Shown piece after piece: positions 12,214 through 57,247 of a stretch of 64,000 nt of DNA. A program made the translations under genes and the position numbers. This stretch comes from Candidatus Omnitrophota bacterium. GTDB lineage: Bacteria > Omnitrophota > Gorgyraeia > Duberdicusellales > 4484-171. Position 1 is the first letter of the stretch; each line of letters begins with the position of its first letter. The notes beneath the pieces are model-generated. The model saw only the letters and a list, made by a program, of their open reading frames with translations. It did not search any database and was not told the DNA's origin. Location: NCBI GenBank assembly GCA_043823745.1, contig JBDRAN010000002.1, forward strand, positions 6,296-70,295, written 5' to 3'.

Positions 12214-12235
12214 ATCGTATAAAAAGATAAGCGCA

Positions 12236-16980: not shown

Positions 16981-16981
16981 G

Positions 16982-17499: not shown

Positions 17500-18027
17500 A
17501 TGAAGAAGTACCACGCAGCGTTTAGGCCATATTTAAATGATCTTGCGGCACGTTCGCCATCGCCGGGCGGAGGAAGCGCGGTGTGTTTATTTGTTTGTCT
17601 GGGCATTAGTTTGATCGAAAAAGCAATACAATATTCCCTTATTCCCCGGGGTGCGGTGCCCTCTCGTTCTTTGCGCGGCGCTCTGCGGATAATGGGAGCC
17701 CGGCGTAAGAAAATAGCACTCCTTGTAGACCGCGACGGCTATTTTTTTGCAAAAATTATGACTACACGGGAAAAAGCGCGCGCCCGCTGGCTTACAAAAA
17801 GCGAACAACTTATTGTTGAAGTGGGGAAAAGTTCTCGTGAGGTATTTCTTCTTGCTAAAGAAATAGAATCTGGTATAAAAAAGGGTATTATGAGTGACTT
17901 TTTGATCGGGCTGGATGCTTTGCGCCTTGCGCTTAACGGATGCGCGTATAATCTTGAGACTAACGAAGCATTGTTTGGAAGAAAGAGCACGTATGCCCCT
18001 ATTTTTAAACGTTACGCAACGCACTAG
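17500..18027 (+). CDS. Cyclodeaminase/cyclohydrolase-family protein (FTCD C-domain-like, likely methenyl-THF cyclohydrolase)
   Basis: SPSPGGGSA motif of the formiminotransferase-cyclodeaminase C-domain family. Start moved to ATG 17500 (the upstream part of the track ORF is repeat-derived). Immediately followed by folD. Confidence 0.6.
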   Translation: MKKYHAAFRPYLNDLAARSPSPGGGSAVCLFVCLGISLIEKAIQYSLIPRGAVPSRSLRGALRIMGARRKKIALLVDRDGYFFAKIMTTREKARARWLTKSEQLIVEVGKSSREVFLLAKEIESGIKKGIMSDFLIGLDALRLALNGCAYNLETNEALFGRKSTYAPIFKRYATH

Positions 18028-18028
18028 A

Positions 18029-18868: not shown

Positions 18869-18955
18869 CGTATAGAGAAAAGTCCACAGTCGACAGTCCA
18901 GTGCGTAGCTTGCCCGAAGGGCGTGCGGAGCCTCCTCAAAAAGGACGGTCCACCG
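18866..18955 (+). repeat. Dispersed about 90-bp intergenic element, copy 2 (folD-oxidoreductase spacer)
   Basis: Same blocks as copy 1, with an extra GCCCGAAGGGC GNRA hairpin. Confidence 0.7.
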
Positions 18956-19003
18956 ATTTTCTAGAAGCTGATGGCTGAAGACTGATGCTGAAAGCTTAAA
19001 AGT

Positions 19004-21198: not shown

Positions 21199-21299
21199 CT
21201 ATCGTAAATGGTCACCAGGTCACAAAGTCACAAGATCACCCGTTTTTACTGGTGACGTGGTGACATGGTAACGTGGTGACTTTTAAGTTTGTACCAAAT

Positions 21300-22841: not shown

Positions 22842-22921
22842 GATAAGCTTTTTAGCTCTTAAGCTGATGAGCTCATGAGCTTAAAAACTTATGAGCTCAA
22901 TGGTTTCTCGTAAAATTTACT

Positions 22922-29164: not shown

Positions 29165-29171
29165 ATCAAAC

Positions 29172-30803: not shown

Positions 30804-30851
30804 TACAAGAGGTTAATTCTATTCCATACGTATACGTACAATCAATAAATG

Positions 30852-30886
30852 GCGATTCTACTAGAATCGCTCTTTGACTTTTTTGA
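30852..30886 (+). terminator. Possible intrinsic terminator after HK1
   Basis: GCGATTCTA-c-TAGAATCGC inverted repeat followed by TCTTTGACTTTTTT. Confidence 0.4.
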
Positions 30887-30902
30887 CACAGTGACGCAGA
30901 CG

Positions 30903-30997
30903 GGAAAAAAGCGAAAAACTCATAATTTCATGATATAATCAACAAAATGGGTTTATCCGGCCTCATAAACGCAATAATCAAAACATTCATCATAAAA
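30903..30997 (+). repeat. Direct repeat copy B (about 95 bp): native promoter and 5' end of the AAR-like gene
   Basis: GGGAAAAAAGCGAAAAACTCATAATTTCATGATATAAT...ATGGGTTTATCCGGCCTCATAAACGCAATAATCAAAACATTCATCATAAAA matches 27817-27910. Confidence 0.85.
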
Positions 30998-32095
30998 TTA
31001 TTGCCTCGGTTTATCCTTCGGAAATTAGGCTACAATCGAGGAATCGCTTTTATTGCTAATCTTCCTAATACGGCTTCCGTGCCTCTTTCCGTACCTTTCA
31101 GAAAGCTGGTAATCGCAATAATGCGGCAACTTTCGCCGGTTGTTGTTTCTCCCCTAGGTGGTTTTAAGAATAAAGATGGGGCGGAGGTCAAGGGGTGGGT
31201 AATCCTTTGTCTGCTCACTGCCGCCGAAATTCTAACGCATGCAGATTTCGCAAGAAAACGAGTCGTGCAGGCCGCTTGCTTGGCAGAACGCATGGGCGTG
31301 GATATTATAACATTAGGCGCTTTTACCTCGATTGTAACGCATGACGGTTTGGACTTAATAGGTAAAACAAAAGTTGGGATTACAACCGGCAATCCATACT
31401 CCGCAATCGTGGCAATTCAAAATATGCGAGAGGCTGCTCGGTTGGTAAATTTAGACATTATCAATGCAACGGTCGCAATCGTCGGTGCTGCTGGGTCTGT
31501 TGGATCAGGTTGTGCTCAGTTTCTGTTAGGAAAGGTAAAAAAGTTTTTGCTTATAGATTGGCAATATAATGCTTTGCGCGAGTTATATGATACGATTAAT
31601 CCAAAATCTACTAGTGTTGAAATGTTAAAAGATGTTCAGGGTATTGCTGCGGCTGATATTGTTATTCTTGTCACAAGTTCTGTCACCGGAATTATCGGAA
31701 AAGACTTATTAAAACCAGGCGCAATAGTAATAGACGGCGCAAATCCCCCCAATATTTCTAATGAAACGCTAAAATCAAGAAGTGATATTCTTGTGATTTC
31801 TTCCGCAATCGTAAAGGTGCCCGGTTTGCGTCATCCTTTTAATTTTAATCTGGGCTCAGGGGAAACATTCGGCTGTGTCGGTGAAGCTTTTGCTCTTGCC
31901 TGGACAAAGCATAAAGGTAATTATGCATTAGGTAAGGTTAGCGTACAACAGATGCAAGATATTGAAAGTATCGCCAGCGACGCAGGCTTTACCATCGCTC
32001 CGTTTCGTAATTCTCTTGGCTTAATTTCCAAAGAACAGATTGCTCATGTCCGTAACATAATACATTCTAATTATTTGAATACTGCGATAAAATAG
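30947..32095 (+). CDS. Acyl-ACP reductase (AAR)-family protein, homolog of the cyanobacterial alkane-pathway reductase
   Basis: Blocks ITLGAFTSIV, ITTGNPYSAIVAI, ATVAIVGAAGSVGSGCAQFL, IVIDGANPPN and FGCVGEAFALAW match AAR recalled from memory (ISALGGFTSII, FTTGNTHTAYV, ATVAVVGATGDIGSAV, LIDGGYPKN, FACFAEAML). Apparently leaderless (TGaTATAAT 7 nt before the ATG). Confidence 0.65.
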   Translation: MGLSGLINAIIKTFIIKLLPRFILRKLGYNRGIAFIANLPNTASVPLSVPFRKLVIAIMRQLSPVVVSPLGGFKNKDGAEVKGWVILCLLTAAEILTHADFARKRVVQAACLAERMGVDIITLGAFTSIVTHDGLDLIGKTKVGITTGNPYSAIVAIQNMREAARLVNLDIINATVAIVGAAGSVGSGCAQFLLGKVKKFLLIDWQYNALRELYDTINPKSTSVEMLKDVQGIAAADIVILVTSSVTGIIGKDLLKPGAIVIDGANPPNISNETLKSRSDILVISSAIVKVPGLRHPFNFNLGSGETFGCVGEAFALAWTKHKGNYALGKVSVQQMQDIESIASDAGFTIAPFRNSLGLISKEQIAHVRNIIHSNYLNTAIK

Positions 32096-32117
32096 GCTTT
32101 ATAACCAAAAATAAAAC

Positions 32118-33194
32118 ATGCCTGCAAGAAAAAAACAATCAATAAACACAATAGTAGAAAAGATCGGTGAGAGTAAAAAACGAAAAATAATAATCGATTT
32201 TTTCTCTAAAGATATAGAAAATTTTGACCAGAGCATAAAGAATCTAGAGAAAAAAACACCCCTCAAGTCTTTCCCTAATAACAAAATTTGCTTATATGTT
32301 TTCCGACTTATGAATAAGTTATTAGATAAGGCACGAGTAATTGAAGAAATAATTAGCGATAAAACGCTTTTAAAAGCGATAAAGCAAGCGTTTAGAGAAC
32401 AAATAGAATATTTTCTTGGCAAGAGCACGTTAATGCGTTGGGGGTATTATAAACCCTCCGGGCATCCCGGCGACTATGAATTAATAGAAGCATTTTATGA
32501 TAATATGCCTCTTTCCAAAGGCATAGGTTTTTGTGGTGACAAATATATTCTTCAAGACGGCTATGTAGAAGCAGTTAAAATCAGAAAAGATTTGATGCTG
32601 CAAAAACTGGCTTCTTTTATAAAGGATAATACATCAAAACATCTAAATATTATGAATCTTGGGTGCGGATCAAGCAGGGAAATACGAGAGTTGTTTTCTA
32701 CTGCTCATGTCTTAATTCCTCGCGACAAAAGAATAACATTTACCTTAATTGATTGGGACGAAAAAGCTCTAGAGTTTTCAAAGCAATCGTTATTAAAATA
32801 TCGAAGTAACGATGCTATTGAATTCATATTTTTTAAGATAAACGTGCTCGATTTATATAAAAATTCTTCTCAATATACAAAAGCCCTGATGAAGCAGGAT
32901 TTGATTTATAGTATTGGTTTGGCAGATTATATGCCAAATTTAGTTTTTGGCGAAATAATAAAATTTTGTTTTAGTTTATTAAAAAAGAAAGGTACTCTAA
33001 CTATAGCGCACAAAAATATTAAAGTGCATAAAAGTGTTGCTTCCGATTGGGCATGCGATTGGCATTTTTATCCTCGCAGTATCGAGGATGTAATTAAAAT
33101 TATTGACGAAAGTTTTGAAGACCATAAACGTAAAGTAGAAACTGTCAGTGAAAAAACAAAGCATATTTTTTTCGTGGATATAAGTAAACCATGA
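32118..33194 (+). CDS. Class I SAM-dependent methyltransferase with an about 170-aa N-terminal extension
   Basis: Motif I LNIMNLGCGSSREI, acidic motif II (TLIDWDE), and a later motif (GTLTIAH). 358 aa. Confidence 0.6.
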   Translation: MPARKKQSINTIVEKIGESKKRKIIIDFFSKDIENFDQSIKNLEKKTPLKSFPNNKICLYVFRLMNKLLDKARVIEEIISDKTLLKAIKQAFREQIEYFLGKSTLMRWGYYKPSGHPGDYELIEAFYDNMPLSKGIGFCGDKYILQDGYVEAVKIRKDLMLQKLASFIKDNTSKHLNIMNLGCGSSREIRELFSTAHVLIPRDKRITFTLIDWDEKALEFSKQSLLKYRSNDAIEFIFFKINVLDLYKNSSQYTKALMKQDLIYSIGLADYMPNLVFGEIIKFCFSLLKKKGTLTIAHKNIKVHKSVASDWACDWHFYPRSIEDVIKIIDESFEDHKRKVETVSEKTKHIFFVDISKP

Positions 33195-35260
33195 AGTCAA
33201 ATTTTTATTTTGTGTCACATTTAGCCGCAGCATTACTTGTTCTGTTTTTTTCATTCTTTGTTTTTATAAAAAATAAAAAATCAAAAGTTAATCTTAGTTT
33301 TTCAATATTTGGATCAACAATTTTTAGCTGGCTTTTATTTTCTTCTTTTGCAGCTATTTCCGCCGAAAAAGAGATGAATCTTTTTTGGTTCAAAATGAGT
33401 TATATGGGTATTATTCTTATACCGCATACTTTCTTGTATTTTGTATCGTGCGTAACAGAAAAAAAGAATACTTTTATTATATTTTTCAGTTGGCTCTATG
33501 CCTTTAGTTTCATTCTATTGTTATGGTTTACTAATTTATTTATAGTCGGTATTTATGAATATCCTTGGGGGGTTTATCCTCGTGCTTTTCCAATCTCACA
33601 CCTTCTATTTTTATCATCATTTATTATTTTGTTTGTATGCGCAATCCGTGCTTTAATCTCGAGAGTGATTGAAAAAGCTAATGTTACTACAGAAAAATTA
33701 AGAGCCACTTATATACTTATGGGAACTTTATTCGGAGTTTGCGGAAGTGTAGATTTTTTAGCTAACTATGGGATAAACTTTTATCCTTCTGGCTTCATTT
33801 TTATGATACTTTATCCTTCGATTCTAAGTTATGCCATCCTCAAATACCGCTTAATGGATATTCGCGTTGCTTTAACCCGCGCGGGAATTTTCATTGCTGT
33901 TTATACGTTTGTTTTAGGCATCCCGCTTTTAATTGGTTTCAAAACAGATAAATGGCTCTGGGCGATGCTTTTAATGGGCGTTCTTTCAAGCGTAGGGCCG
34001 TTTGTGTATAGCTATTTACGCCAACAGATTGAAAATGCGATCTTTAAGGAACAACAAAGATATCAGCAAGCCATCAAAGAATTAGCTAAACGGATGGTAC
34101 AGATAAGAGACATGGCCACTTTGTCTAAGACGATTATTTCCGATGTGTTCAAAGTCGCGCAACCGGAATTTATTGTCCTGTACATATTTTCCAAAGATAG
34201 TAAATCATACGTACTCCAGGACAACAGTATAAAAAATAATTCTACGTTTGAGACAGACATTTCAGCGGATTCAATACTCGTAGAGAATTTATCCCGTAAC
34301 AAACGGCCGGTGATTCTTGAGAGCGGTTTTTCCTTAGATTTACCGCTGGAAACGCTTATTGTGCCTTTCTTCGCGGAAAGCAGCCTCTATGGCATAATGT
34401 TTATCGGTCCTAAGCCGAAAAAGGCTGTTTATATAGAATCAGATTTCATTGCTTTTGATATTCTTTCTTCTCAGGCGTCCTTAGCCATCGAAAATTGTCT
34501 CTTCTGGCAGGAGGAAAAAACTCGAATAGCAAAAGAAGAGCAGATAAAACGAATGCAGGCCATGGATCATTTCTCTGCGGCCATGGCTCATGAAATAGAC
34601 AATCCCATCACTGCAATAGCCGGGCAATTGCGTTTGATAGAGCTTATCCTTAGCGAAAAATTTAAAGACTTGATTCCTGCCCAAGACTTAGCTGAATTAA
34701 CTACTTATGCCGGTACAACGGTAACTAATCTTGGAAGAATATCGAAAATGATAAAGGCAGTAAGGGAATTTTCCAGGCAAGATACGGGCGAATTTTCGCT
34801 TTTATCAGTGGAGGAGGCTGTCGATTTTACTTTAGCGATAGTTGGGCCGCAGGTCAAATACAAAAAAGTATCTTTCACCAAAGAAATAGAAGATAACCTT
34901 TCTGTACGCGGCAACAGGATTTATCTGGCGGAAGCTTTGATGAACTTAATCGTCAATAGTATGCATGCGGTTCAAGATAAACCGGAGTGGCAGGGAAAAA
35001 TAGATTTAAAAGTTAAAAAAGCCGGTAGAGAAAAATGTCTTATTGAAATACGCGATAATGGTTATGGTATAAAAAAACATCTTCTTGAAAATATTTTCTT
35101 AGATTTTGTCAGCACTAAGGCTTCTTCTGAAGGAACGGGGATGGGGTTAGCTAGAGTAAGAAAAATAATCCAAATGCACAGCGGCAAAGTATGGGCGCAA
35201 AGTGAAGGCGCCGGTAAAGGGGCAACTTTTTTTATCGAACTTCCCTTGGCAGAGAAATAG
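33191..35260 (+). CDS. Polytopic membrane sensor histidine kinase (HK2), paralog of HK1 with an extra cytoplasmic (GAF/PAS-like) region
   Basis: The N-terminal TM domain ends in YAILKYRLMDIRVAL, the same motif as HK1. H-box SAAMAHEIDNPI. HATPase_c GTGMGLARV. 689 aa. 4-nt overlap with the methyltransferase. Confidence 0.85.
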   Translation: MKSNFYFVSHLAAALLVLFFSFFVFIKNKKSKVNLSFSIFGSTIFSWLLFSSFAAISAEKEMNLFWFKMSYMGIILIPHTFLYFVSCVTEKKNTFIIFFSWLYAFSFILLLWFTNLFIVGIYEYPWGVYPRAFPISHLLFLSSFIILFVCAIRALISRVIEKANVTTEKLRATYILMGTLFGVCGSVDFLANYGINFYPSGFIFMILYPSILSYAILKYRLMDIRVALTRAGIFIAVYTFVLGIPLLIGFKTDKWLWAMLLMGVLSSVGPFVYSYLRQQIENAIFKEQQRYQQAIKELAKRMVQIRDMATLSKTIISDVFKVAQPEFIVLYIFSKDSKSYVLQDNSIKNNSTFETDISADSILVENLSRNKRPVILESGFSLDLPLETLIVPFFAESSLYGIMFIGPKPKKAVYIESDFIAFDILSSQASLAIENCLFWQEEKTRIAKEEQIKRMQAMDHFSAAMAHEIDNPITAIAGQLRLIELILSEKFKDLIPAQDLAELTTYAGTTVTNLGRISKMIKAVREFSRQDTGEFSLLSVEEAVDFTLAIVGPQVKYKKVSFTKEIEDNLSVRGNRIYLAEALMNLIVNSMHAVQDKPEWQGKIDLKVKKAGREKCLIEIRDNGYGIKKHLLENIFLDFVSTKASSEGTGMGLARVRKIIQMHSGKVWAQSEGAGKGATFFIELPLAEK

Positions 35261-35275
35261 AAAGGAGGATTAATT

Positions 35276-35662
35276 ATGGAGAAGCGCAAGGTTCTTATAG
35301 TGGAGGATGAACAGGACATTTGCCAGTTTATGAAAAGGATGCTTGAATTAAAAGGATGCGAAGTTTTTACCGCTCTCACCGCGCAAGAAGGCTGGGAAAT
35401 TTTTCAAAGAGAAAAGCCCCAAGCTTGCTCTATCGATATTCTTCTTTCCCATTCAGAATTTGACGGCACAGAACTTTTAAGAAGAATAAGGCAAATAGAT
35501 AAAAACGTTTTGTGCGTAATGGTAACGCGTATCGATGACAAAAAAACTATGAATGAAGTGGAAGAACTAGGGATTGACGGAATTTTCATAAAACCTCCCG
35601 CGGCAGGAGAGCTGGATAATTTAATCGACCAGCTCGCGCATGGCAAAAGAAAGGAGGCATAA
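35276..35662 (+). CDS. Stand-alone response-regulator receiver domain (CheY-like)
   Basis: VLIVEDEQD acidic pocket, candidate phospho-Asp in SIDILLS, conserved Thr (CVMVT) and Lys (FIKP). 128 aa with no output domain. Confidence 0.75.
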   Translation: MEKRKVLIVEDEQDICQFMKRMLELKGCEVFTALTAQEGWEIFQREKPQACSIDILLSHSEFDGTELLRRIRQIDKNVLCVMVTRIDDKKTMNEVEELGIDGIFIKPPAAGELDNLIDQLAHGKRKEA

Positions 35663-35664
35663 CG

Positions 35665-36000
35665 ATGGCAAATCCATTACCAAATGAAGCTGAACTTTAT
35701 GCAAGAATGGAAAAAGAGCATATCAACGTGCATCCGCTTGTATGGGAATTCATTAATCATCATGTGAGAAATGATCTTAACTGGATTACGATGTGCATAG
35801 GTTTGCATCGTTCAACGCCGCGCTGGATACTGCGGCTTGCTTCTTCTCTTATCAGCCTCTTATACAAAATCTCCCGTCAACCGGGAGAGCCGCCCCCTGA
35901 TCTTTTGAGCGCTTTTAACGGCACTATTGAGAGAGTAAAAAATATCGACAGATTTTTAAAAAATTTGCGAGAGAAAACCTGTCCTGCTTACGATCTTTAA
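35665..36000 (+). CDS. Hypothetical protein, translationally coupled to the receiver
   Basis: 111-aa ORF starting 3 nt after the receiver stop. No recognisable motif. Confidence 0.4.
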   Translation: MANPLPNEAELYARMEKEHINVHPLVWEFINHHVRNDLNWITMCIGLHRSTPRWILRLASSLISLLYKISRQPGEPPPDLLSAFNGTIERVKNIDRFLKNLREKTCPAYDL

Positions 36001-37675: not shown

Positions 37676-39054
37676 TGCGAACGCACACATGTGGAGAATT
37701 GTCGGCCGGTGACATCGGCAAAGAGGTTATCATCTGCGGTTGGGTTGCGAGTCGTCGCGATCACGGAAAAATAATTTTTATTGATATCCGTGATCGTTAC
37801 GGTATCACGCAGGTTGTTTTTTTCCCGAAACCCGATCCGGTCGTGTACGAACAGGCAAAAAAGTTGGGCAGCGAATTTGTGATACGCGTGCGCGGTACGG
37901 TCAACACGCGGCCCAAGGGAACCGAGAACCCGAAGCTTAGCACCGGTTTTATCGAAGTGGGAGCGGCTGAGTTAACCATACTTAATACGAGCGCGGAACT
38001 TGCGTTTGTTATTGATGACGAGATCGAAGCGGGTGAGGAGACGCGTCTGGTGCATCGCTATCTTGACCTGCGCAGAAAAAAGATGCTTGATAAAATGGTA
38101 TTGCGTCATCAGTTTAATCAGGCTTTACGCGCCTGCCTCGATAAACAGAAATTTCTTGAAATCGAGACCCCGTTTCTTACGAAGTCAACTCCCGAGGGCT
38201 CACGCGATTATTTAGTCCCCTCAAGGCTTAACCCGAATAAATTCTACGCTCTTCCGCAATCCCCGCAGCTTTTTAAACAGATATTGATGGTCGGAGGAAT
38301 CGATCGTTATTACCAGCTGGTACGTTGTTTTCGCGATGAAGACTTACGCCGGGACCGCCAGCCCGAATTTACACAGCTCGATATCGAGATGTCCTTTGTT
38401 GATGAGAATGATGTGATGAGCCTTGCCGAGGGCCTTATCGCGGCCGCCTTTGGCCAGGTGCTGGGCATCGAAATTAAAACACCATTTATTCGCATTCCTT
38501 ACAAAGAGGCGATGGAAAAATACGGGTCTGATAAACCTGACGTCGGCCAGGGGGAGTATCGATTCTCGTGGGTCGTTGACTTTCCACTTTTTGAATACAA
38601 TGACGACGAGAAACGCTGGCAGGCGTGTCATCATCCGTTTACCGCGCCTCAATCCGATGACGTCGGGCTTCTCGATGGTGATGTTTCAGTGGTTCGTGCG
38701 CGAGCGTATGATCTTGTTTTAAATGGTCAGGAAATTGCCGGCGGTTCGGTAAGAATACATTCTCAAGAGATGCAGGAAAAAATTTTTCAGATTCTGGGTA
38801 TCAGCGCAGAAGATGCGCAGAAGAAATTCGGGTTCCTGCTGCGCGCGTTTACCTACGGTGCGCCGCCGCATGCGGGTATTGCATTTGGCCTTGATCGTCT
38901 GTACGCGATTATTACCGGATCTGAAAGCATCCGTGACGTGATCGCGTTCCCGAAGACCCAAAAAGGAGTTTGCCCTCTCACGGAAGCGCCATCGGCAGTG
39001 GATGACGCGCAATTACGAGAGCTTTATTTGAAGTTGGTGGAAGAGAAGAAATAA
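37672..39054 (+). CDS. aspS: Aspartyl-tRNA synthetase, bacterial-type core but lacking the GAD insertion domain
   Basis: [49 protein letters not shown] is the bacterial-type motif 2 region. Motif 3 GGSVRIH. Only 460 aa. Confidence 0.8.
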
Positions 39055-39126
39055 GCGATTAGCGTTTAGCGATTAGCGGATAGTGTAGATTCCACATCTT
39101 CCTACTACACGCTACACGTTATAGGT

Positions 39127-39845: not shown

Positions 39846-39942
39846 AGAGAAGGACATGGGATGTTGGACGTTCGCTCGCACGGCGCTCGTTGCGCCAGGC
39901 TCGTTGGGACGTGGGACGTAAGACGTAGGACGATCAGAAAAC

Positions 39943-42748: not shown

Positions 42749-42840
42749 GGGAAGGCTTCGCACCCCCTGACGGGAGGCTTCGCACCCCCCTTCGGGGAGG
42801 CTTTGCACCCCCCTTGACGGGAGGCTTCGCGCTAACTTTG
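42749..42840 (+). repeat. Tandem array of four 22-25-bp hairpin units (GGGAGGCTTCGCACCCCCCTTC-like)
   Basis: Four contiguous units. Each carries a CCCC-TTCG/TGAC-GGGG mini-hairpin. Confidence 0.8.
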
Positions 42841-43574: not shown

Positions 43575-43716
43575 GAAAGCGATGAGCGTAAAAGCACGGT
43601 TCTATGGTGTAGGTTGTAGGGTGAAGGCTCTAGGGTTTTTAACCTAGAACCTTGAACCTGGAGCCTGAGGCTTGAAGTAAGGTGTTATCCGGTATTTATG
43701 GTATAATTACTTTTAT

Positions 43717-44225: not shown

Positions 44226-44669
44226 GTGATGATTTACGAAAACAGAAAAGTGGATGCGATTGAAGAAAAAGCAAAGAAAACCTTAGGCCAGACATTTTTT
44301 CCCGATGATGTTGACCCGGGAATTTTGCAGACGATCGCCTATGAGTATCCAAAGCGCGTAATTGACGTTGAATTGACAACCTCGGAGTTTACCTGCATCT
44401 GCCCTTATTCGGGCCTTCCTGATTTTGCCACCATCATTATTCGCTATGTTCCTCGCGCGCGGCTTATTGAGCTAAAATCCTTAAAGTATTATTTCTACGC
44501 GTTTCGTAATGTAAAAGTGTATAACGAGCATGCGGTCAACAAAATCCTTGAGGATTTAGTGCGCGTGGTTAAGCCCCGTTCAATGACCGTGATTGGTGAG
44601 TTTACGGTTCGCGGAGGAGCGACGAATAAAGTTACGGCGCAGTATAAAACACGAGCGTATAGCGTTTAG
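44226..44669 (+). CDS. queF: NADPH-dependent 7-cyano-7-deazaguanine reductase (unimodular type)
   Basis: Catalytic CICPYSGLPDF motif and a T-fold. 147 aa. Confidence 0.85.
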   Translation: MMIYENRKVDAIEEKAKKTLGQTFFPDDVDPGILQTIAYEYPKRVIDVELTTSEFTCICPYSGLPDFATIIIRYVPRARLIELKSLKYYFYAFRNVKVYNEHAVNKILEDLVRVVKPRSMTVIGEFTVRGGATNKVTAQYKTRAYSV

Positions 44670-44807
44670 CGTGTAGCGTATAGTAAAGAAGCGATTAGCG
44701 TGTTTAGTGGGGATAATGAAGAAGTGACAAAATTACTAAAAAACTATATTACTAAACTTTCTTTAAACTAATGATTTCATATCTGGATTTTACTAATCGC
44801 TATACGG

Positions 44808-44870: not shown

Positions 44871-46634
44871 ATGAAGAACCAAGACGTGGCCGGTATATTT
44901 AGGGATGTAGCAAATATCTTAGAGCTTAAAGGGGATAATCCTTTTCGCATCCGCGCATACGCGCGGGCTGCGTTAACCATTGAAAGCTTGACGCAGGATC
45001 TTGATGCGCTTATCCACGATGATATGCTTCAATCTCTTCCGGGTATCGGTGTTGATCTTGCGGCAAAAATTAAAGAAATCGTTGCGACGGGAAAACTTTC
45101 CTATTATGAGAGATTGCAGAAAGAAATACCGCCGGGTTTAGTCCAGATGCTTGCGATACCCAGTCTTGGCCCAAAGACCGTAAAAAGTATTTATGACGCA
45201 TTGGGTATCGATACGGTTCGCAAGCTCGAAGCTGCGGCTCGTGCCGGAAAACTTAGGGTTGTTGAGGGTATAAAAGAGAAAACACAGGAGAATATTATTA
45301 AGGGTATCGCGATCCTTAAACAGGGGAGAGAGCGTGTACCTTTGTCGTTTGCGCTTGGTCTTGCCAATGAGTTTGCCGTGCGGCTTAATTCAATTAAAGA
45401 GGTTGATGCACTTGAAGTTGCCGGATCCCTGCGGCGCAGGAAAGATACAATTAAAGATATTGATATTTTGCTTGTTTCAAAAAAGCCCTCCGTTGTTATG
45501 AATACGTTTGTCGCATTGCCGCTGGTGAAGCAGGTTCTTGCGCACGGAGAAACAAAATCATCGGTTATAGCCGGAGAGCACTCTATGCAGGTTGACGTGC
45601 GGGTAGTGTCCAGTGAAAACTTTGGTTCGGCATTGATGTATTTTACCGGCTCAAAAGAGTTTAATATTACGATGCGACAGCTTGCCATCACATACGGCTG
45701 TAAGATAAACGAGTACGGAGTATTTAGGGTAAAAGGGAAAAAAGAGCAGTGGGTGGCTGGTAAAACTGAAGAAGATATCTTTTCTTTTTTTGATATGGGA
45801 TACATTGCTCCTGAATTGCGGGAAGATAGGGGGGAAGTGCTCGCGGCGCGAGCCCATAAACTTCCCCTGCTTATCGAGCTTGACGATATAAAAGGCGATT
45901 TTCATGTGCATTCAAAATATAGCGATGGTACTGCCGAAATTAGCGATATCGCCGCAGTCGCTGCGCGTCGTGGTTATAAATATATCGGTATTTGTGATCA
46001 TTCTATGAGTCTTAAGATCGCCGGAGGGCTCTCGGTGCGGCAGGTACACAAAAAAATAGCCGAGATTCGCGCGCTTAATAGAACAAGCGTGACACGGCTT
46101 TTAGCCGGCACGGAAGTGGATATTGATTCTAGAGGCGTGCTTGATTATCCGGAAAGCGTATTGCGCGAGTTTGATCTGGTAGTGGCGGCAATCCATAGCG
46201 GCTTTAAGCAATCAAAAGCGCAGATCACCCGGCGTCTGGTCGCGGCATGCAAGAATAAAGCGGTTAACATTATCGCGCATCCCACGGGTAAGTTGTGGGG
46301 CATGCGCGAGCCGTATGATTTCGATCTCCAAGAGGTTCTGCGCGCCGCAGCGGACAATAACGTGGCTATGGAAATAAATTGCCATCCCCAGCGTATCGAT
46401 TTAAATGATATAGCGGCGATGCGCGCGAAGAAGTTTGGCGTAAAAATTTCTCTGGGTACTGATGCCCATACATTGGATCAGCTTTCCAGTATCGAGCTTG
46501 GAGTAACTACTGCGCGCCGGGCGTGGCTTACGAAGCATGATGTTATTAACTCGATGGGGTACGAGGTGCTTACGCAGTGGTTAAAAAAGAGGCTAAAGAA
46601 CGCAGATGAAGCGAATGTATCGAGAAGTGGTTAG
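44871..46634 (+). CDS. polX: Family X DNA polymerase with C-terminal PHP phosphoesterase domain
   Basis: N-terminal helix-hairpin-helix region, Pol-beta-like nucleotidyltransferase (GSLRRRKDTIKDIDIL), and PHP (HVHSKYSDG...ICDHS). 587 aa. Confidence 0.8.
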   Translation: MKNQDVAGIFRDVANILELKGDNPFRIRAYARAALTIESLTQDLDALIHDDMLQSLPGIGVDLAAKIKEIVATGKLSYYERLQKEIPPGLVQMLAIPSLGPKTVKSIYDALGIDTVRKLEAAARAGKLRVVEGIKEKTQENIIKGIAILKQGRERVPLSFALGLANEFAVRLNSIKEVDALEVAGSLRRRKDTIKDIDILLVSKKPSVVMNTFVALPLVKQVLAHGETKSSVIAGEHSMQVDVRVVSSENFGSALMYFTGSKEFNITMRQLAITYGCKINEYGVFRVKGKKEQWVAGKTEEDIFSFFDMGYIAPELREDRGEVLAARAHKLPLLIELDDIKGDFHVHSKYSDGTAEISDIAAVAARRGYKYIGICDHSMSLKIAGGLSVRQVHKKIAEIRALNRTSVTRLLAGTEVDIDSRGVLDYPESVLREFDLVVAAIHSGFKQSKAQITRRLVAACKNKAVNIIAHPTGKLWGMREPYDFDLQEVLRAAADNNVAMEINCHPQRIDLNDIAAMRAKKFGVKISLGTDAHTLDQLSSIELGVTTARRAWLTKHDVINSMGYEVLTQWLKKRLKNADEANVSRSG

Positions 46635-47625
46635 TGTATCGTGCGTTACTGTCAAAGCATACCGAATTTTCTTTTTGTTTTTCATAGCTTCTGTTCCCAT
46701 AGTGTTTTTAGGAGCCTGTAGCCGGCAGCCCGTAACGCGTACTTTTGTTGCTGCCGGTACGTATCTTGAAGTAAAATCGCCCGATACCCGCGCCGCCGGG
46801 ATTGTGTATGAAGAATTCAAGCGCCTTGAGGCGATTTTTAATTTTTATAGTCCGGATTCTGAACTCTCGCGGCTCAACCGTACTTTTCAGGAACCGGTAA
46901 AAGTTTCCTCGGAATTACTTGAAGTCTTGCTCTTGGCTCAGAAAGCGACAAGGGCAACCGAGGGAGCTTTTGATGTCAGCTACGGCGCGCTCTTCGCACG
47001 TTGGAAAGAGTGCATCAAAAGCGGTACGGGGGAGTTTCCACGGGAAGAGGAAATAACGGCGCTGCGGGAATCAGGTGGTATGCAGAATATTGAGATCAAC
47101 CAGAGCGCCGGCACCATTACGATCAAAAAAGAAGGGCTTAAAATAGATTTAGGCGGTATTGCCGAAGGATATATGGTTGACCGCGCCGCCCGCAAGCTTC
47201 GCGCTGCAGGAATTACCAGCGCGCTTATTAATGCCGGCGGTGATATTTATTGTATGGGTATGAATTTCAGTAAACCCTGGGTTATCGGTATCAAAGACTC
47301 ACGCGGGCTTACCCATATTGTCCAAGCCGAGAAGCTTGTTGATGCAGCGGTTACGACCTCCGGAAACTATGAACAGTTTTTCGAGCATAGAGGGAAAAAA
47401 TATTCTCATCTTATTGACCCGCGTACCGGATTTCCGGTCCAGAGTAATGTGGTTAGCGTTAGCGTTATTGCCAAAGATTGTACCGCTGCTGATAGCCTTG
47501 CGACTGCATTCTTTGTGATGGGTCTTGAGGCAACAAAAGTTTATATTAACGCGTACCCTCGAGGTATGCGCGCGTTTTTTTTGACATCGGAAAATGGTAT
47601 TGAGAGCATGGAGACGGTGGAGTAA
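46606..47625 (+). CDS. apbE: FAD:protein FMN transferase (ApbE family) lipoprotein
   Basis: Lipobox FLGAC. ApbE motifs (LGGIAEGY, TSGNYEQ). Exact start uncertain; the track start overlaps the polX stop by 29 nt. Confidence 0.75.
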   Translation: MKRMYREVVSVSCVTVKAYRIFFLFFIASVPIVFLGACSRQPVTRTFVAAGTYLEVKSPDTRAAGIVYEEFKRLEAIFNFYSPDSELSRLNRTFQEPVKVSSELLEVLLLAQKATRATEGAFDVSYGALFARWKECIKSGTGEFPREEEITALRESGGMQNIEINQSAGTITIKKEGLKIDLGGIAEGYMVDRAARKLRAAGITSALINAGGDIYCMGMNFSKPWVIGIKDSRGLTHIVQAEKLVDAAVTTSGNYEQFFEHRGKKYSHLIDPRTGFPVQSNVVSVSVIAKDCTAADSLATAFFVMGLEATKVYINAYPRGMRAFFLTSENGIESMETVE

Positions 47626-47924
47626 AGAAGCTAGGAAGCTCGTGGCTTACAGGGAAGATGGCAGATTGCAGATGACAGATGGCAGATAGAGGGACGAGGG
47701 ATGAGAGACGCAGATTGCCGCGAAATCAACGCAGATTTACGCAGATAAAAAAGAGATTTTGTATCCTCGTTACTTACAATCTTTGCTTTAATTTTAAAAC
47801 TTGACCTATTTTTGTGGAGGGATAGTATAATCATTAATGAGTGATTATATGAGGCTAAAATTTAGGTAAATTTATAGGGTAACTCTTAAAGGGATTGCCT
47901 TTTTTGACCAAGGATACGAGAAAA

Positions 47925-48500
47925 ATGGACGAAGGAAAATTATTTGTAAATCTTCACAATATTCTTAAAGGATATAAAAACAAATGTAGATTTTTAACCG
48001 AGCTAAAAACTTCATTATTTACTAAAAAAACATCTTATCAGCTTGATTTTGATATTATAATCATTCAGTTGCAAAACAGGGTAGAAGACATTTTTGACCG
48101 TATTCTAAGAACTTATACAAGACCTAAGCAAAAAGAGGAATATTTATATAACGATGAGATAATGAAAGATACTGCAGCAAAATTTACCCCCGAGGAGGTT
48201 AGGAACTTGATTATTTTTAATCTTGGTTTTAGTGAGAAAAAGAATTTGATTTTCAAGCTTTTTAAGGTATCTAAATCGACGAAAACGATAATTGATAAAC
48301 TTAATGAAATGAGAAATGCAATTGCCCATAGATATAGCGAAGACGATAAAAGATTTATTTATAAAGAAAAGAACGTTTTACATGATCCAAACACACTTAT
48401 TAATTTTTTTAGAGACAATTTCGAGGGTATTATTGAGATTCTTGAAATCGAAACTAAGCTACTAGATGCCATAGATAAAGCCGAAGGTGAACTTGGTTGA
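47925..48500 (+). CDS. Hypothetical protein with an HEPN-type Rx4H motif (possible RNase, toxin or Abi)
   Basis: C-terminal MRNAIAHRY fits the HEPN R-x(4-6)-H motif. Predicted all-alpha. AT-rich island. The TTG start at 47895 is also possible. Confidence 0.4.
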   Translation: MDEGKLFVNLHNILKGYKNKCRFLTELKTSLFTKKTSYQLDFDIIIIQLQNRVEDIFDRILRTYTRPKQKEEYLYNDEIMKDTAAKFTPEEVRNLIIFNLGFSEKKNLIFKLFKVSKSTKTIIDKLNEMRNAIAHRYSEDDKRFIYKEKNVLHDPNTLINFFRDNFEGIIEILEIETKLLDAIDKAEGELG

Positions 48501-49042
48501 AATTCAATGTGAGCCTTGAGCAGAGAAGAATGAACAAAAAACAATCAATCATAATATTGGTGTTATTATTTATTCCGATAATTAGTTGTTTTGCCGCCAG
48601 AGACTATCTCATAGACAAAGGACAGAAGCCTGACGAGTCAACTTTCCATGAATACAAGATTGACTTGGATGGCGACAAGAAACCAGAGTTAATCAAAGTT
48701 ATGTATGGCCCTGGTGTATCTGATAAATACCTTGAGATAGAAGTCTATAAGGCAGGCAAACTCATATCTCGTCTCAAGGGCAAGTTCGGTATCCAGTCCA
48801 ACTACAAGATAGAAGATATAGATAAGGACGGCAAAAAAGAAATCATCATCTGGAGCGGCATCTGGGATCCGCGCCTGTCTGGAGAGGATGGCGTGACGGA
48901 AGCAACGTACGAAGGTCACAGCAGTCCGCACAGATATATCGTAGCTACCTATAAACTCATAAGGGACGATTATTACCTTTGGAAGATATACACTACCAAG
49001 AAGAAGTACGAGCCGTTTTGTGAAGAGCAGCCAAAAGAGTAA
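48497..49042 (+). CDS. Hypothetical lipoprotein or secreted protein
   Basis: Signal peptide IIILVLLFIPIISC. 4-nt overlap with the previous gene. No motif recognised. Confidence 0.45.
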   Translation: MKFNVSLEQRRMNKKQSIIILVLLFIPIISCFAARDYLIDKGQKPDESTFHEYKIDLDGDKKPELIKVMYGPGVSDKYLEIEVYKAGKLISRLKGKFGIQSNYKIEDIDKDGKKEIIIWSGIWDPRLSGEDGVTEATYEGHSSPHRYIVATYKLIRDDYYLWKIYTTKKKYEPFCEEQPKE

Positions 49043-49076
49043 GGAAGCAAGAACGTTGAAACAAAAGGAGTGAAAA

Positions 49077-49565
49077 ATGAAAAAACTAATCTTGTTTTTA
49101 GTATTCGCTTTTCTATCCTTGTCCAGCACCGCTTTTGCTGATATTAAGACTGAAGCAGATATGCTCAAGAAAGATTTGATTAGTTTCCATAACAAAATGG
49201 CAGCTTATCAAAGAGAAGAATCCGAGCCTTCCAATACTATGTATAATAAGTTATATACAGATCAAGCGGGCGAACTATTTGTTTTTACGAATATAAGCCG
49301 AGCATATTTAAACTATGCACGTTTTCTGCTCGATGAAATTAAATGGTTAAAACTAGACTCAGATAACGAATTAGTTAGGGGATATTTAAAAAATAGCTTA
49401 TCTAATTTTAATAAAGAAGGGGAATTTTATGTTAAATATTTAGCTTACCATATAGAATTTGCAAAGAATCTAGAAATGACTAAAAAATTACAGATTTTGA
49501 AAGAAGATATAGCCGCGCTTCACACTAAGATTAAAAAATTTAGCGATAATATTTCTACAAAATAA
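49077..49565 (+). CDS. Hypothetical secreted alpha-helical protein
   Basis: Signal peptide MKKLILFLVFAFLSLSSTAFA. SD AAGGAG upstream. Confidence 0.5.
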   Translation: MKKLILFLVFAFLSLSSTAFADIKTEADMLKKDLISFHNKMAAYQREESEPSNTMYNKLYTDQAGELFVFTNISRAYLNYARFLLDEIKWLKLDSDNELVRGYLKNSLSNFNKEGEFYVKYLAYHIEFAKNLEMTKKLQILKEDIAALHTKIKKFSDNISTK

Positions 49566-49593
49566 AGGTAAATATCAAAAACAATCAAAGCAA

Positions 49594-49959
49594 ATGTGGA
49601 AATATTTCGAATGTGAAAGATGTGGTAAGTGTTGTGAAGAAGCTGGATTACCTTGGGACCCAAATCGTAGTCAAAGGATTGCTCAATTTCTTGGTATTTC
49701 TGTTGCTGAATTGGTAGAAAAATATTATGGTAAAATTTGTTCTGACGATAAGCAATGGGAAAGTGAAGAAACAAAAAGAACACCGTGTCCGTTTCTTAAA
49801 TTTAAAAATATGCAAAAAAGTTGTGCTATCTACACGGTAAGACCTGAACCATGCGAGCTCTATCCTTTAGAAACTGATTTTGGAACTTGCGGGGTTGAAT
49901 GTCCTGCTGCCAAGAAATTTTATAAAAGAATTGTGAATAAAGACAAAATTAATAATTAA
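49594..49959 (+). CDS. YkgJ/UPF0153-family putative zinc- or iron-chelating protein (CxxCxxCC)
   Basis: CERCGKCC N-terminal motif plus downstream Cys residues (CPF...C...C...C). 121 aa. Confidence 0.6.
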   Translation: MWKYFECERCGKCCEEAGLPWDPNRSQRIAQFLGISVAELVEKYYGKICSDDKQWESEETKRTPCPFLKFKNMQKSCAIYTVRPEPCELYPLETDFGTCGVECPAAKKFYKRIVNKDKINN

Positions 49960-50114
49960 AATCTTTAGCCGCAAGGCGAGGATTTTTTTTGTTTATGGGT
50001 ATTATAAAAACAAAGTCAGTATTCGGATAGGTTTGAAATGCTCTGGGTAGCTGGTAGAAAGGCAAAAGTTTTAGCATGATGCGAAGGCTAAATGGCGATG
50101 GGTAGGAACGAAGA

Positions 50115-50864
50115 ATGAATAAAAAACAAGCAATAATTATCTTGCTTATTACGTTTCTAGCTATCCCCAAATGGGTGTTTCCAAAGGAGAAGGACCCTAA
50201 ACATTGGACAGAACTATTAAATAATGTTGACAAGATATCTGGGATGGACGCAAGCAAGATTTCTGAGGAGCAATTTTATGAATATGAGCAAGCCTTAATT
50301 ACTGGGTTTAGTGGTTCCGGAGGTAACTTTCTTGGGGAAAAAGAGATAAATTGGTTGACTAAAATGGAAGAATCCTTTAAGAAGCGAGGAATTACGCTAA
50401 AAGATACATGGCATAGACATTATGTTATCGCTGATTCATACTTTAACGATGAGCGATATTCTAAAGCTCTCGAGGAATTTAAGAAGCTTGGGGATCGGCC
50501 AGGTATTGAACTTAGTGAATGGATGGTTAGCAACAAAGGGATAACAGACGGTGTTATTAAAATAATGGAGTATAAGGGTAAGATTCCCCACGATTCATTG
50601 GAAAGCGGAAGCGCTCGAGCGGAAGATAAGCGCTATCTCTTTATCTCATGTTTTAAAGGTCCTGTTTATCGATACAATAAAGTAACAGATATGCATGCCA
50701 TTGTGTATGCTCCCGAATTCAAATACGATTGGTCAGATAATCTTTCATTTGATGGAGAGCTTCTTACCATCACGCTCAGAGACGATGCGGGTATATTTAT
50801 ATTTAATAATGTTTCTAAGGAGATAAAGCAACAATCTAAAAGCAGATCAATAAAAAACAATTAA
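50115..50864 (+). CDS. Hypothetical secreted protein
   Basis: Signal peptide. 249 aa. No motif recognised. Confidence 0.45.
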   Translation: MNKKQAIIILLITFLAIPKWVFPKEKDPKHWTELLNNVDKISGMDASKISEEQFYEYEQALITGFSGSGGNFLGEKEINWLTKMEESFKKRGITLKDTWHRHYVIADSYFNDERYSKALEEFKKLGDRPGIELSEWMVSNKGITDGVIKIMEYKGKIPHDSLESGSARAEDKRYLFISCFKGPVYRYNKVTDMHAIVYAPEFKYDWSDNLSFDGELLTITLRDDAGIFIFNNVSKEIKQQSKSRSIKNN

Positions 50865-51020
50865 CCATGGTAGCTCATGGCTCATGGCTGATAGCTCATA
50901 GTGAAGAGAAAAATACTAAAGATTGTGAGCCGTGAGTTATGCGTTTCTTTCAGGGCTATGAGCAATGAGCTATGAACTATGAGCTAGATTATACTCACTA
51001 CTCAATACTTAAACATTACA

Positions 51021-51872
51021 ATGGATACCATCAAAAAGATAGCGGTTAGTGACATTAAGAGAAGAAAGGGGAGGGGTAAGCTTGCGATGCTTACCTGTTA
51101 CGATTATTCCTTCGCGCGTATTCTTGATGAGGCGGGTATCGAGGTTCTCCTGGTGGGTGATTCTTTAGCTAATGTTGTTTTAGGACTTTCTGAAACACGA
51201 AAGATCTCCATTGTTGAAATGCTTAATCATACTGCAGCAGTAGCAAAGGGAGTAGTCCGCGCTTTGGTTGTTGCGGATATGCCGTACGCGAGCTATCAGC
51301 GCAATCCCGGTCGAAGTGTTTTTTATGCAAAGAAATTTATTGCTGCTGGTGCGGCCGCGGTTAAAGTTGAATGGTTCCAGGGTCCGGGTTCAAAGAGCTG
51401 CGTCGGGGTGGTAAGAGCGCTTATTGCCGCGGGCATTCCGGTGATGGGTCATATCGGCCTTACGCCGCAAACCGCGCACCTTTTAGGCGGGTACAAGGTT
51501 CAAGGTAAAGACTTGAAGTCCGCGCGCGCTATCCTTTCGCAGGCACTTCTTTTGCAAAGACTCGGAGTTTTCAGTATTGTTCTTGAGTGTATACCTTGGC
51601 AACTTTCGCGGCTTATTACCGCGCGCCTTACGGTGCCTACGATTGGTATCGGCGCCGGCTCCTATTGCGATGGTCAGGTGCTCGTTTTGTATGATTTTCT
51701 GGGGCTTTATGGCTCACGACCCACGTTTGCTCGCGTATATGCGCCGCTGGCACGATATATTGAAAGTGCAATTAAACGTTTTAAAAGGGATATCAAAGAG
51801 TTTCATTATCCTTCTTCCCGCGAAAGTTTTGCCGTCAAGGAAGGCCTCTATCGGCGTCTTAAGAAATACTAG
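51021..51872 (+). CDS. panB: 3-methyl-2-oxobutanoate hydroxymethyltransferase
   Basis: KLAMLTCYDYSFARILDEAGIEVLLVGDSL signature. 283 aa. Confidence 0.85.
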   Translation: MDTIKKIAVSDIKRRKGRGKLAMLTCYDYSFARILDEAGIEVLLVGDSLANVVLGLSETRKISIVEMLNHTAAVAKGVVRALVVADMPYASYQRNPGRSVFYAKKFIAAGAAAVKVEWFQGPGSKSCVGVVRALIAAGIPVMGHIGLTPQTAHLLGGYKVQGKDLKSARAILSQALLLQRLGVFSIVLECIPWQLSRLITARLTVPTIGIGAGSYCDGQVLVLYDFLGLYGSRPTFARVYAPLARYIESAIKRFKRDIKEFHYPSSRESFAVKEGLYRRLKKY

Positions 51873-51954: not shown

Positions 51955-52617
51955 ATGAAAAAAGTCTGCGTTGTGTTCATGCTTATTTGTATGTTTGGGT
52001 TGATGTCTTCACGCGCCTACGCTTCCTACATTGGGGCTTCTGCCGAAAAAGCTAAACAGGGAATTGTCAACGTCTTTACGGGTTGGCTTGAAGTGCCATA
52101 TCAGGTTTCTAAAGGGTGGAAAAGCGGTTTCGGCGAAGACGAGAATAATAAACTTCTCGGAGGTTTCCTGGGAGTGTTCCGGGGGCTTATCCATGCGACC
52201 GGAAGAACTGCCACCGGTATCTATCAGGTCGCGACGTTCCCTTTGCCCAATCCCAAAAATAACGAAGGTATTGGTATTCCGCTTGATGCAAACCAAGCTT
52301 GGGAAGAGGGAACTCAATATTCTCTGGTCAATAACGGAATTCAGCCTATCGGCAAAAAAGCCTTCAGGGGGTTTATTAATACTTTTTTTGCGATTTTTGA
52401 AGTTCCCGGTCAGGTTGCCAAAGGGTTTGAAGAAGATAGGCCCTTCATTGGGCTTGGCAAGGCAGTAGTATTTCCGATTGGACGATTTTCTTCCGGTGTA
52501 TATGACTTGGTGACTGTGCTTCTTCCTAATAGCGTGGAAGAGTATGGGTATGCCTTGGAGGAGAAACAGCCATGGGATGCGATTGAGGAAGCGAGGCGCC
52601 GTAACGATCAGCAATAG
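51955..52617 (+). CDS. Secreted protein with four internal about 35-aa repeats
   Basis: Signal peptide. Repeats NVFTGWLEVPYQVSKGW, GVFRGLIHATGRTATGIYQVATFPL, NTFFAIFEVPGQVAKGF and KAVVFPIGRFSSGVYDLVTVLLPN. Confidence 0.5.
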   Translation: MKKVCVVFMLICMFGLMSSRAYASYIGASAEKAKQGIVNVFTGWLEVPYQVSKGWKSGFGEDENNKLLGGFLGVFRGLIHATGRTATGIYQVATFPLPNPKNNEGIGIPLDANQAWEEGTQYSLVNNGIQPIGKKAFRGFINTFFAIFEVPGQVAKGFEEDRPFIGLGKAVVFPIGRFSSGVYDLVTVLLPNSVEEYGYALEEKQPWDAIEEARRRNDQQ

Positions 52618-57078: not shown

Positions 57079-57223
57079 ACGCTAATTTTCGCAAATCCGG
57101 AAGAACGCTAATGTACGCTCATCAAGAAGAGAAGCTCGAATATGAAGGTATTCAATCCATGACAATTATAGTTTTTTCATTAGTGTCATTTGCGTTTTCA
57201 AAATTCGCGGTCATTGGCGTTCT

Positions 57224-57247
57224 AAATTAGCGGTAATTCGCGTTTAT
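57224..57247 (+). promoter_or_regulatory. Second copy of the AAATTAGCGGTAATTCGCGTTTAT motif, ending at the purQ start codon
   Basis: CTAAATTAGCGGTAATTCGCGTTTAT ATG. No SD. Confidence 0.5.

Follow-up and report, generated by a model that had tools for sequence, protein, structure and literature searches.

Genes and features between apbE and panB

We analysed a window of 64,000 nt from Candidatus Omnitrophota (contig JBDRAN010000002.1), and our subject here is the AT-rich region at 47640-50990 of this window, which lies between the genes apbE and panB and carries five genes. Our results suggest that it is probably a non-autonomous, mosaic islet of accessory genes, inserted into the short apbE-panB spacer of this Omnitrophota lineage. 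All seven mapped genes, ApbE through PanB, are on the + strand, and the other features are given on the same strand. On the left, ApbE (46606-47625; Pfam 7.6e-82) is followed by a spacer in two parts: a native-type segment with core-like GC content (47626-47749, GC 0.50), built of AGATGGC (×4.6), GAGGGAC (×3) and ACGCAGAT (×3), and an AT-rich segment upstream of the first islet gene (47750-47924, GC 0.30), which contains a promoter-like site and the presumed left edge of the insert. The islet genes follow in this order: a HEPN-superfamily protein of 191 aa with the catalytic-type motif R130-N-A-I-A-H135 (47925-48500); SP1, a predicted exported protein of 170 aa with a Sec-type signal and DxDxDG motifs (48530-49042); SP2, a predicted exported protein of 162 aa with a canonical AxA site (49077-49565); a YkgJ-type CxxCxxCC protein of 121 aa, predicted to be cytoplasmic (49594-49959; PF03692 2.5e-11, above the cut-off); and SP3, a predicted exported protein of 249 aa (50115-50864). 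A terminator-like hairpin with a GCAA loop and a U8 run (49958-49991) separates YkgJ from SP3, and a long imperfect heptamer hairpin (50871-50986; TAGCTCA ×4.4, 54 nt, GCTATGA ×4.6) separates SP3 from PanB (51021-51872; Pfam 3.4e-91).

The Pfam and motif evidence agrees with the gene list of a preliminary description of this DNA, which had named, between ApbE and PanB, a HEPN-motif protein, three secreted or lipoproteins and a CxxCxxCC protein. It had also stated that most of the proteins have signal peptides; three of the five islet genes encode a hydrophobic N-terminus (compared with 8 of the 48 other genes of the window), and only SP2 has a canonical AxA site. The HEPN gene starts at the ATG at 47925 and not at an upstream TTG, as all nine family members align from MDE or MEE and the NCBI protein also has 191 aa. 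The left spacer therefore measures 299 nt, not the 269 nt first described; the GCAGAT word said to open the islet is present (six occurrences in 47661-47746), but only the 47750-47924 segment is AT-rich. Records identical to islet proteins are annotated as hypothetical (ABH865_00380, ABH865_00385 and ABH865_00400, from a Candidatus Omnitrophota metagenome-assembled genome (MAG)). No credible small open reading frames (ORFs) were found in the islet spacers, NCBIfam gave no useful match for any islet protein, and an Rfam scan of 47.0-51.5 kb returned one sub-threshold match, sbrA, which we considered due to chance.

Gaps of 28-34 nt lie between HEPN, SP1, SP2 and YkgJ, and SP3 follows after 155 nt. 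The promoter-like site comprises TTGACC (47801-47806) and TAGTAT (47823-47828), the latter overlapping TATAAT (47826-47831); the site is a consensus match only. The terminator-like hairpin gives a fold at 49950-49995 with a free energy (dG) of -14.6 kcal/mol and z = -3.7. From this arrangement, HEPN-SP1-SP2-YkgJ would form a first transcription unit, starting from its own AT-rich promoter region and ending at the U8 hairpin, and SP3 would form a second one, with the heptamer hairpin downstream.

The region differs in composition from its surroundings

The region 47640-50990 has a GC content of 0.353, and the GC profile dips below the core there. By comparison, windows of the same size outside both AT-rich regions of the 64 kb (n=790) have a GC content of 0.477±0.014 with a minimum of 0.450, which places the region at z = -9.1; the sharp GC drop between apbE and panB claimed in the preliminary description is thus confirmed. 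Codon usage differs as well, and synonymous sites show the sharper contrast. The GC content at third codon positions (GC3) is 0.26 in HEPN, 0.27 in SP2, 0.21 in YkgJ and 0.35 in SP3, and these four genes deviate at z -4.7 to -9.1 from 41 core genes (0.495±0.032). SP1 has a core-like GC3 (0.51), yet its GC content at first and second codon positions (GC12) and its codon adaptation are low. Thus, the composition of the islet is heterogeneous: GC differs sharply from the core, with a deviant GC3 in four of the five genes. Since GC shifts from 0.50 to 0.30 near 47750, we set the left edge of the foreign DNA there, and the insert would span about 3.1-3.3 kb, roughly 47750-50868.

The region might instead be native and lineage-specific, missing from the relatives through loss and AT-rich through weak selection or through the amino-acid composition of small exported proteins. 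Two observations fit this: the SP1 and SP3 families are named by the sources only from Omnitrophota, and the arrays flanking the region are native. The third-position shifts, however, are synonymous and reach -5 to -9 standard deviations, which amino-acid content does not produce. Moreover, SP1 shares 78-80% identity with proteins from genomes whose PanB is far more diverged, and the adjacency of ApbE and PanB in five relatives of several lineages would call for repeated loss. We therefore regard a native origin as very improbable.

The five genes interrupt a conserved gene order

In five related Omnitrophota (L002-L006), ApbE was found by tblastn immediately upstream of PanB, within a backbone PolX-ApbE-PanB-(TIGR04073)-PurB, and in one of them (L004) the apbE-panB spacer is 47 nt long. 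None of the L002-L006 loci matched any of the five islet proteins (tblastn). Because ApbE directly precedes PanB in these five relatives, we read the five genes as an insertion. This is the adjacency that had been predicted for relatives, although the genomes compared are distant: the best PanB matches in species-representative genomes reach 55-63% identity and belong to Omnitrophota-type MAGs. Look-ups for exact copies of the window's HEPN and PanB proteins returned nothing. A metagenome scan with ApbE found relatives only at 35% identity, and no close relative with which to date the insertion.

Could the region be a chimera, in which metagenome assembly joined a foreign 3-kb fragment into the contig? 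The MAG source, the abrupt change of composition and the position of the junctions in repetitive, low-complexity sequence would all fit. This would, however, take two exact mis-joins at a distance of 3.3 kb, and both flanks keep their conserved synteny and orientation, with ApbE and PanB intact. Such a chimera is barely credible.

The neighbourhood of panB also varies in other ways. The gene 3' of panB in the window (51955-52617) encodes a TIGR04073 'exosortase system-associated' protein (NCBIfam 1.6e-22, two repeats), which is present in L001 and L004 and missing between PanB and PurB in L002, L003, L005 and L006. L001 lacks ApbE between PolX and PanB and carries, at 10853-19140, an 8-kb block between PanB and the TIGR04073 gene (radical SAM/Fer4_12, acyl carrier protein, two ketoacyl synthases and several unknown proteins). 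This block, together with the missing ApbE, indicates that the panB neighbourhood is variable in the clade.

Word-repeat arrays flank the islet but are not its borders

The preliminary description took the word-repeat spacers on both sides as the borders of the island. On the right, the octamer it had named, GAGCTCAT, is not present in the spacer; instead, the spacer holds TAGCTCA (×4.4) together with the complementary word GCTATGA (×4.6), and these two arrays form an inverted repeat with 31-nt arms. The resulting hairpin (50871-50986) folds with a dG of -48 kcal/mol (z = -4.8). The array of the left spacer has no significant secondary structure (fold z = -0.9).

Such arrays are not confined to this locus. 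Using Tandem Repeats Finder and a crude gene map, we found short-word arrays in about 15 of the about 30 intergenic gaps of the 64 kb (218-312, 11406-11442, 13701-13758, 14905-14965, 17352-17465, 18881-18992, 21210-21280, 22844-22899, 39054-39078, 39907-39932, 42753-42830, 43598-43659, 44654-44756, 47656-47746, 50871-51009 and 57079-57245). Their periods are mostly 7, with some of 8 or 23-26, and each gap has its own word. Many arrays pair with their own reverse complement into long imperfect hairpins, often with a T-rich loop (z -3.5 to -4.9), and others are direct only. Hairpins analogous to the one upstream of panB, and as stable, lie at 13.7, 14.9, 21.2, 22.8 and 43.6 kb, with z -3.5 to -4.9 for those at 13.7, 21.2 and 43.6 kb. 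The closest relatives by PolX and PanB, L004 and L001, likewise carry period-7 arrays, and in L004 a heptamer array lies within the uninterrupted 47-nt apbE-panB spacer.

Because the arrays occur genome-wide and in the intact spacer of L004, they are native to the lineage. In all likelihood the insert came to lie between two of them. The 47626-47749 spacer is thus probably outside the insert, and the 50871-50986 hairpin is probably native and may act as a terminator or as an RNA-stabilising structure. We also considered the GCAGAT and GCTCAT spacers as att-like borders, and rejected them on the same grounds: arrays occupy about half of the intergenic gaps and are present in the relative's intact spacer.

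Note that the spacers at 17330-17500 and 47626-47760 are alike: each has GAGGGA[CT]GAGGGA, then an array of an ACGCA word (ACGCAAT ×10 or ACGCAGAT ×3) and then AAAAAGAGA, and neither holds a complementary array. The first of them belongs to a gap of 585 nt without a long ORF (17330-17914). Taken together, the heptamer arrays look like a lineage-wide terminator or RNA-structure system. They resemble the STRR heptamer repeats of cyanobacteria. Pervading the spacers of the lineage as they do, the period-7 arrays and hairpins are perhaps more interesting than the islet itself, and may merit a study of their own.

Predicted exported proteins and YkgJ: relatives of SP1 and SP3 on mobile elements

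The SP1 family is well conserved, comprises at least 95 clusters with up to 80% identity, and comes from Omnitrophota wherever the source names the organism. Besides its DxDxDG motifs, SP1 gives weak matches to FG-GAP_3 and PliI. Its signal has the xFAA site typical of the family, and a Cys in an IISC context could be a possible lipobox. SP1 homologues have three kinds of surroundings. In L087, and at the same site in a second genome, they lie in a variable segment that has LpxI/radical-SAM genes on one side and an HTH_17 excisionase-like gene together with a tyrosine integrase on the other; elsewhere they stand beside Prim-Pol/DUF5906, or beside DnaJ/Hsp70 and M78 genes. A 78%-identical homologue sits between M78/HTH genes and HTH_17 with a tyrosine integrase.

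SP3 has a helical N-terminal half, followed by a C-terminal fragment of two beta-propeller-like blades. Its family, named by the sources from Omnitrophota only, consists mostly of lipoproteins with an LxSC lipobox; the copy in the window lacks the Cys. SP3 homologues occur in a recurring module that resembles an integrative and conjugative element (ICE), on two metagenome contigs (L090 1528-9006; L097 6294-13060), with the order integrase, 233-249-aa protein, SP3-like lipoprotein, 186-aa protein, 670-aa DUF87 ATPase, SpoVG, and DUF932 or DUF2958. The DUF87 ATPase of this module is HerA/VirB4-like. The SP3 family may be a conjugation- or type IV secretion system-associated lipoprotein.

SP2 is the only one of SP1-SP3 with a canonical AxA signal-peptidase site, MKKLILFLVFAFLSLSSTAFA|D (…AFA|D), and appears mostly helical when its sequence is judged by eye. 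Apart from SP2 itself, its tiny family consists of four 50%-identity clusters among 1.84 billion representatives. The context of a relative is known for L092 only, where an unrelated lipoprotein comes next. SP2-like repeats in two giant proteins proved spurious, these being ankyrin- or SEA-repeat proteins.

YkgJ matches PF03692 over its full length (44.5 bits against a cut-off of 23, profile positions 1-85 of 85) and has the canonical CxxCxxCC N-terminus of the YkgJ/UPF0153 family, with CERCGKCC at residues 6-13. The islet copy is distinct from other members only by its location in the islet and by its GC3 of 0.21, the lowest in the window.

As had been claimed, then, the genes are not housekeeping genes. 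Because SP1 and SP3 homologues lie in integrase-, Prim-Pol- or ICE-like islands, we consider that the cargo belongs to the Omnitrophota mobilome. The earlier claim of horizontally acquired cargo is backed by this mobile-element context as well as by the deviant composition of the islet and by the intact synteny in relatives. SP1, SP2 and SP3 would act in the envelope or periplasm, as 'moron'-like cargo of integrative elements, and YkgJ would be a small metal-cluster protein. The label 'cell surface' given to the islet describes the predicted export signals.

A solo HEPN protein

The HEPN protein belongs to a family of nine clusters among 5.8 billion proteins (42-100% identity). The motif R130-N-x-I-A-H135-R (RNxIAH), an Rx4-6H motif of the kind that characterises the HEPN superfamily, is invariant in 9/9 members, as is a second block, E54-D-I-F-D-R-I-L-R-x-Y-x-R-P67 (EDIFDRILRxYxRP), and the protein fits the all-alpha HEPN fold. 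Across the family, HEPN_Swt1 matches 8/9 members, HEPN_Cthe2314 7/9 (best E = 3.7e-7) and RiboL-PSP 4/9, and further matches are to HepT-like, Abi_2 and Csm6 models (Csm6 best E = 1.3e-6). We conclude that the protein is most likely a solo, predicted RNase of the abortive-infection or toxin type; both the RNase activity and the role in defence or toxicity are inferred from the HEPN superfamily. It would act alone.

The PADLOC model PD-T4-2_B also matches 7/9 members (best E = 5.4e-6, 24.5 bits, profile positions 35-142 of 168). PD-T4-2 (Vassallo et al. 2022) consists of a DUF262 protein and a HEPN protein (PMC10952713, PMC12065111), and has been validated against T4 (PMC9519451). The islet differs from this system in that no DUF262/ParB-like partner adjoins the HEPN gene, whose neighbours are ApbE and SP1, or is listed at any homologous locus examined; moreover, the match is weak and non-specific, as the protein also fits the Csm6, Swt1 and Cthe_2314 models. 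Nothing else in the islet was recognised by PADLOC. Neither side of the HEPN gene has an MNT antitoxin gene or a small ORF, so that it does not form a HEPN-MNT pair. Compared with stand-alone HEPN proteins (Abi_2/AbiD-F type, HepT of HEPN-MNT, prophage HepS), the islet protein has no MNT or other conserved partner, and it represents a new, very small family with the additional EDIFDRILRxYxRP block. The 'defence' in the description of the islet thus refers to the HEPN protein and to no other gene, and to this protein without the partner of the closest named system.

The neighbourhoods of the HEPN homologues differ at each locus: a sigma-70/PDDEXK/HTH_17 block, a run of small unknown proteins, DUF3192 and PEGA lipoproteins followed by a restriction-modification system, or an AAA_14 ATPase. 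The gene 3' of HEPN encodes a secreted, lipo- or membrane protein in 4/5 loci, and the 5' neighbours often do likewise. This could point to a functional defence and cell-surface module in which the HEPN RNase works with the exported proteins, for example as envelope sensor or exclusion proteins linked to an effector of the abortive-infection type, and the operon-like packing of four genes closing in a terminator would fit such a module. However, the HEPN neighbours are not homologous to each other, PADLOC sees only the HEPN protein, and the 4/5 count is weakly significant because the background of exported proteins in accessory loci is already about 30-45%. We consider a functional module improbable, and no partnership among the five islet proteins is specifically supported.

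A probable mosaic of single-gene tracts

Our preferred reading, an inserted islet of separate accessory genes, is supported by the way in which the genes are related to other loci. Searches with tblastn and tblastx found no other place where islet genes occur together, and DNA similarity to relatives (blastn) is limited to single genes: the HEPN tract (47922-48549) matches L086 at 82%, the SP1 tract (48529-49027) matches L087 at 76% and the SP2 tract (49068-49552) matches L092 at 77%. The DNA 5' of HEPN is unrelated to the upstream DNA of the HEPN homologues. The earlier reading of the region as a module does not survive these results, since the genes never co-occur elsewhere, the relatives of each have different surroundings, their composition is heterogeneous and their DNA homology extends over single genes. 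The islet would instead be built from single-gene units circulating in the Omnitrophota mobilome, and not from one co-evolved operon.

Another explanation supposes that the five genes arrived together, as part of a single integrative element, ICE or prophage, that later decayed and lost its integrase and att sites. In support of this, the SP1 and SP3 homologues are cargo of integrase-bearing or ICE-like islands, and the five genes are co-oriented and tightly packed. Against it, GC3 is heterogeneous (0.51 in one gene, 0.21-0.35 in the others), no other locus has two of the five genes together, and the islet shows no integrase fragment, att repeat or tRNA. Nor does the islet qualify as a phage or prophage: its proteins gave only fragment matches to PHROGs (E >= 0.004), no relatives of HEPN, SP1 (single sequence and profile), SP3 or YkgJ were found on IMG/VR viral contigs, where SP2 was not scanned, and HEPN had no tblastn match in phage and plasmid collections. 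Searches of the PDB by sequence and profile with HEPN, SP3, SP1 and YkgJ gave nothing significant. We think a decayed element unlikely, if less so than a functional module.

An inserted islet of accessory genes thus remains our interpretation. The region shows features by which horizontally acquired islands are recognised: composition and codon usage deviating from the core, absence from the syntenic site in relatives (L002-L006), and cargo with relatives on mobile elements (SP1 and SP3). Other observations weigh against this interpretation. Mobility genes with a tRNA or flanking direct repeats were not found: the islet has no integrase or transposase (Pfam and a check of the ORFs in the spacers), there is no tRNA within the 64 kb, and the islet is not bordered by direct repeats. 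The sequence comes from a MAG contig, and the nearest genomes are distant (PanB 55-63%), so that the age and the direction of the event rest on parsimony. The HEPN protein of the window scores under the Pfam gathering threshold (HEPN_Cthe2314, 15.8 against 27.1 bits), Foldseek of this protein against the PDB found nothing significant, and we infer, rather than observe, any function in defence or at the cell surface.

The islet, though real and foreign in appearance, is a genomic islet of an ordinary kind. Like other genomic islets and 'moron' cargo, it combines deviant composition, broken synteny and promoter- and terminator-like signals with cargo rich in exported proteins and a defence-type gene, and homologues are found in integrase-bearing islands. 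Unlike them, it has no integrase, tRNA/att site or direct repeats, and was seemingly assembled gene by gene. We also tried the islet as an integron cassette array, and rejected this: gaps of 28-34 nt leave no room for attC, and neither matching inverted repeats nor IntI are present. It does offer a clear example of the gain of accessory genes between conserved housekeeping neighbours in the Omnitrophota, a poorly studied and mostly uncultured phylum, together with three small families worth annotating: the solo HEPN proteins (RNxIAH and EDIFDRILR), SP1 (FG-GAP/PliI-like, periplasmic) and SP3 (helical and two-blade lipoproteins of ICE-like modules). It reveals no new kind of system, and its wider value lies in the period-7 arrays and in a hint of stitching at a 20-nt leader.

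A 20-nt leader at the break-points

The L086 and L087 tracts overlap exactly in a 20-mer, ATGAACAAAAAACAATCAAT, which lies at 48530-48549 and forms the start of SP1 (MNKKQSI). SP3 starts at 50115 with the same leader, carrying one mismatch (ATGAATAAAAAACAAGCAAT), and a further copy at 50846-50865, ATCAATAAAAAACAATTAAC, lies at the 3' end of SP3 just before the native hairpin; it is ATG-less and out of frame, and this remnant probably marks the right junction of the insert. With ≤3 mismatches allowed, the 64 kb contains three matches in all, each of them in the islet, against an expectation of 0.11 from shuffles of the whole window, a control that leaves local AT-richness uncorrected. Outside the window, the exact leader begins an unrelated gene that follows the HEPN homologue of L086 (L086:2442) and a non-secreted protein of 265 aa (L087:6751), and L085 has a frameshifted copy without a gene body 3' of its HEPN homologue. 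The leader was not found in the other 94 loci examined. All of IMG/VR contains 23 exact matches; hence, the leader also occurs elsewhere, but these islands are strongly enriched in it. Its recurrence could in part be the effect of codon bias on the recurring peptide MNKKQL.

The coincidence of the homology break-points with this motif suggests that genes of Omnitrophota islands may have been shuffled as single-gene cassettes, by recombination within the gene-start leader ATGAAYAAAAAACAATYAAT (MNKKQ..). We offer this as a speculative proposal, more probably wrong than right by a wide measure. If true, it would provide a simple, integrase-independent (or unrecognised site-specific) route to mosaic islets, and could explain why a solo HEPN gene stands repeatedly beside different exported-protein genes. 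As in variable surface-protein loci with conserved 5' leaders (for example Mycoplasma vsp/vlp) and integron cassette arrays, the islet has co-oriented single-gene units, unrelated exported-protein genes share about 20 nt at their start (ATGAAYAAAAAACAAT..), and homology tracts change over inside this stretch. The shared patch of the islet is only about 20 nt, attC-like sites and IntI are absent, and there is no evidence of ongoing switching; the likeness is an analogy only.

Note that a stretch of about 45 nt that follows the stop codon of HEPN (TAAAGTTTTAATGTGAGTCTTCGAGCAGAATAGAG and the leader) is conserved in L085 (682-725), L086 (2410-2461) and the window (48501-48549), while the downstream genes differ.

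Other features of the window

The window contains a first AT-rich island at 28076-36000, with a GC3 of 0.28-0.41 and with neither an integrase nor the MNKKQ leader. Its genes encode a NAD_binding_4 reductase, two 7TM-type histidine kinases, a methyltransferase, a Shikimate_DH-like protein and a response regulator.

In a crude map of long ORFs, 53 of the 55 chosen ORFs of the whole window (1-64000) are on the + strand, and GC skew is positive across all 64 kb, so that the strand bias is unusually strong. Finally, the DnaE (Pol III alpha) of 1586 aa at 22922-27682 contains an intein bearing a LAGLIDADG homing-endonuclease domain (Pfam Intein_splicing 4e-24, LAGLIDADG_3 7.5e-9), and the position of this intein coincides with a GC dip at 25-27 kb.

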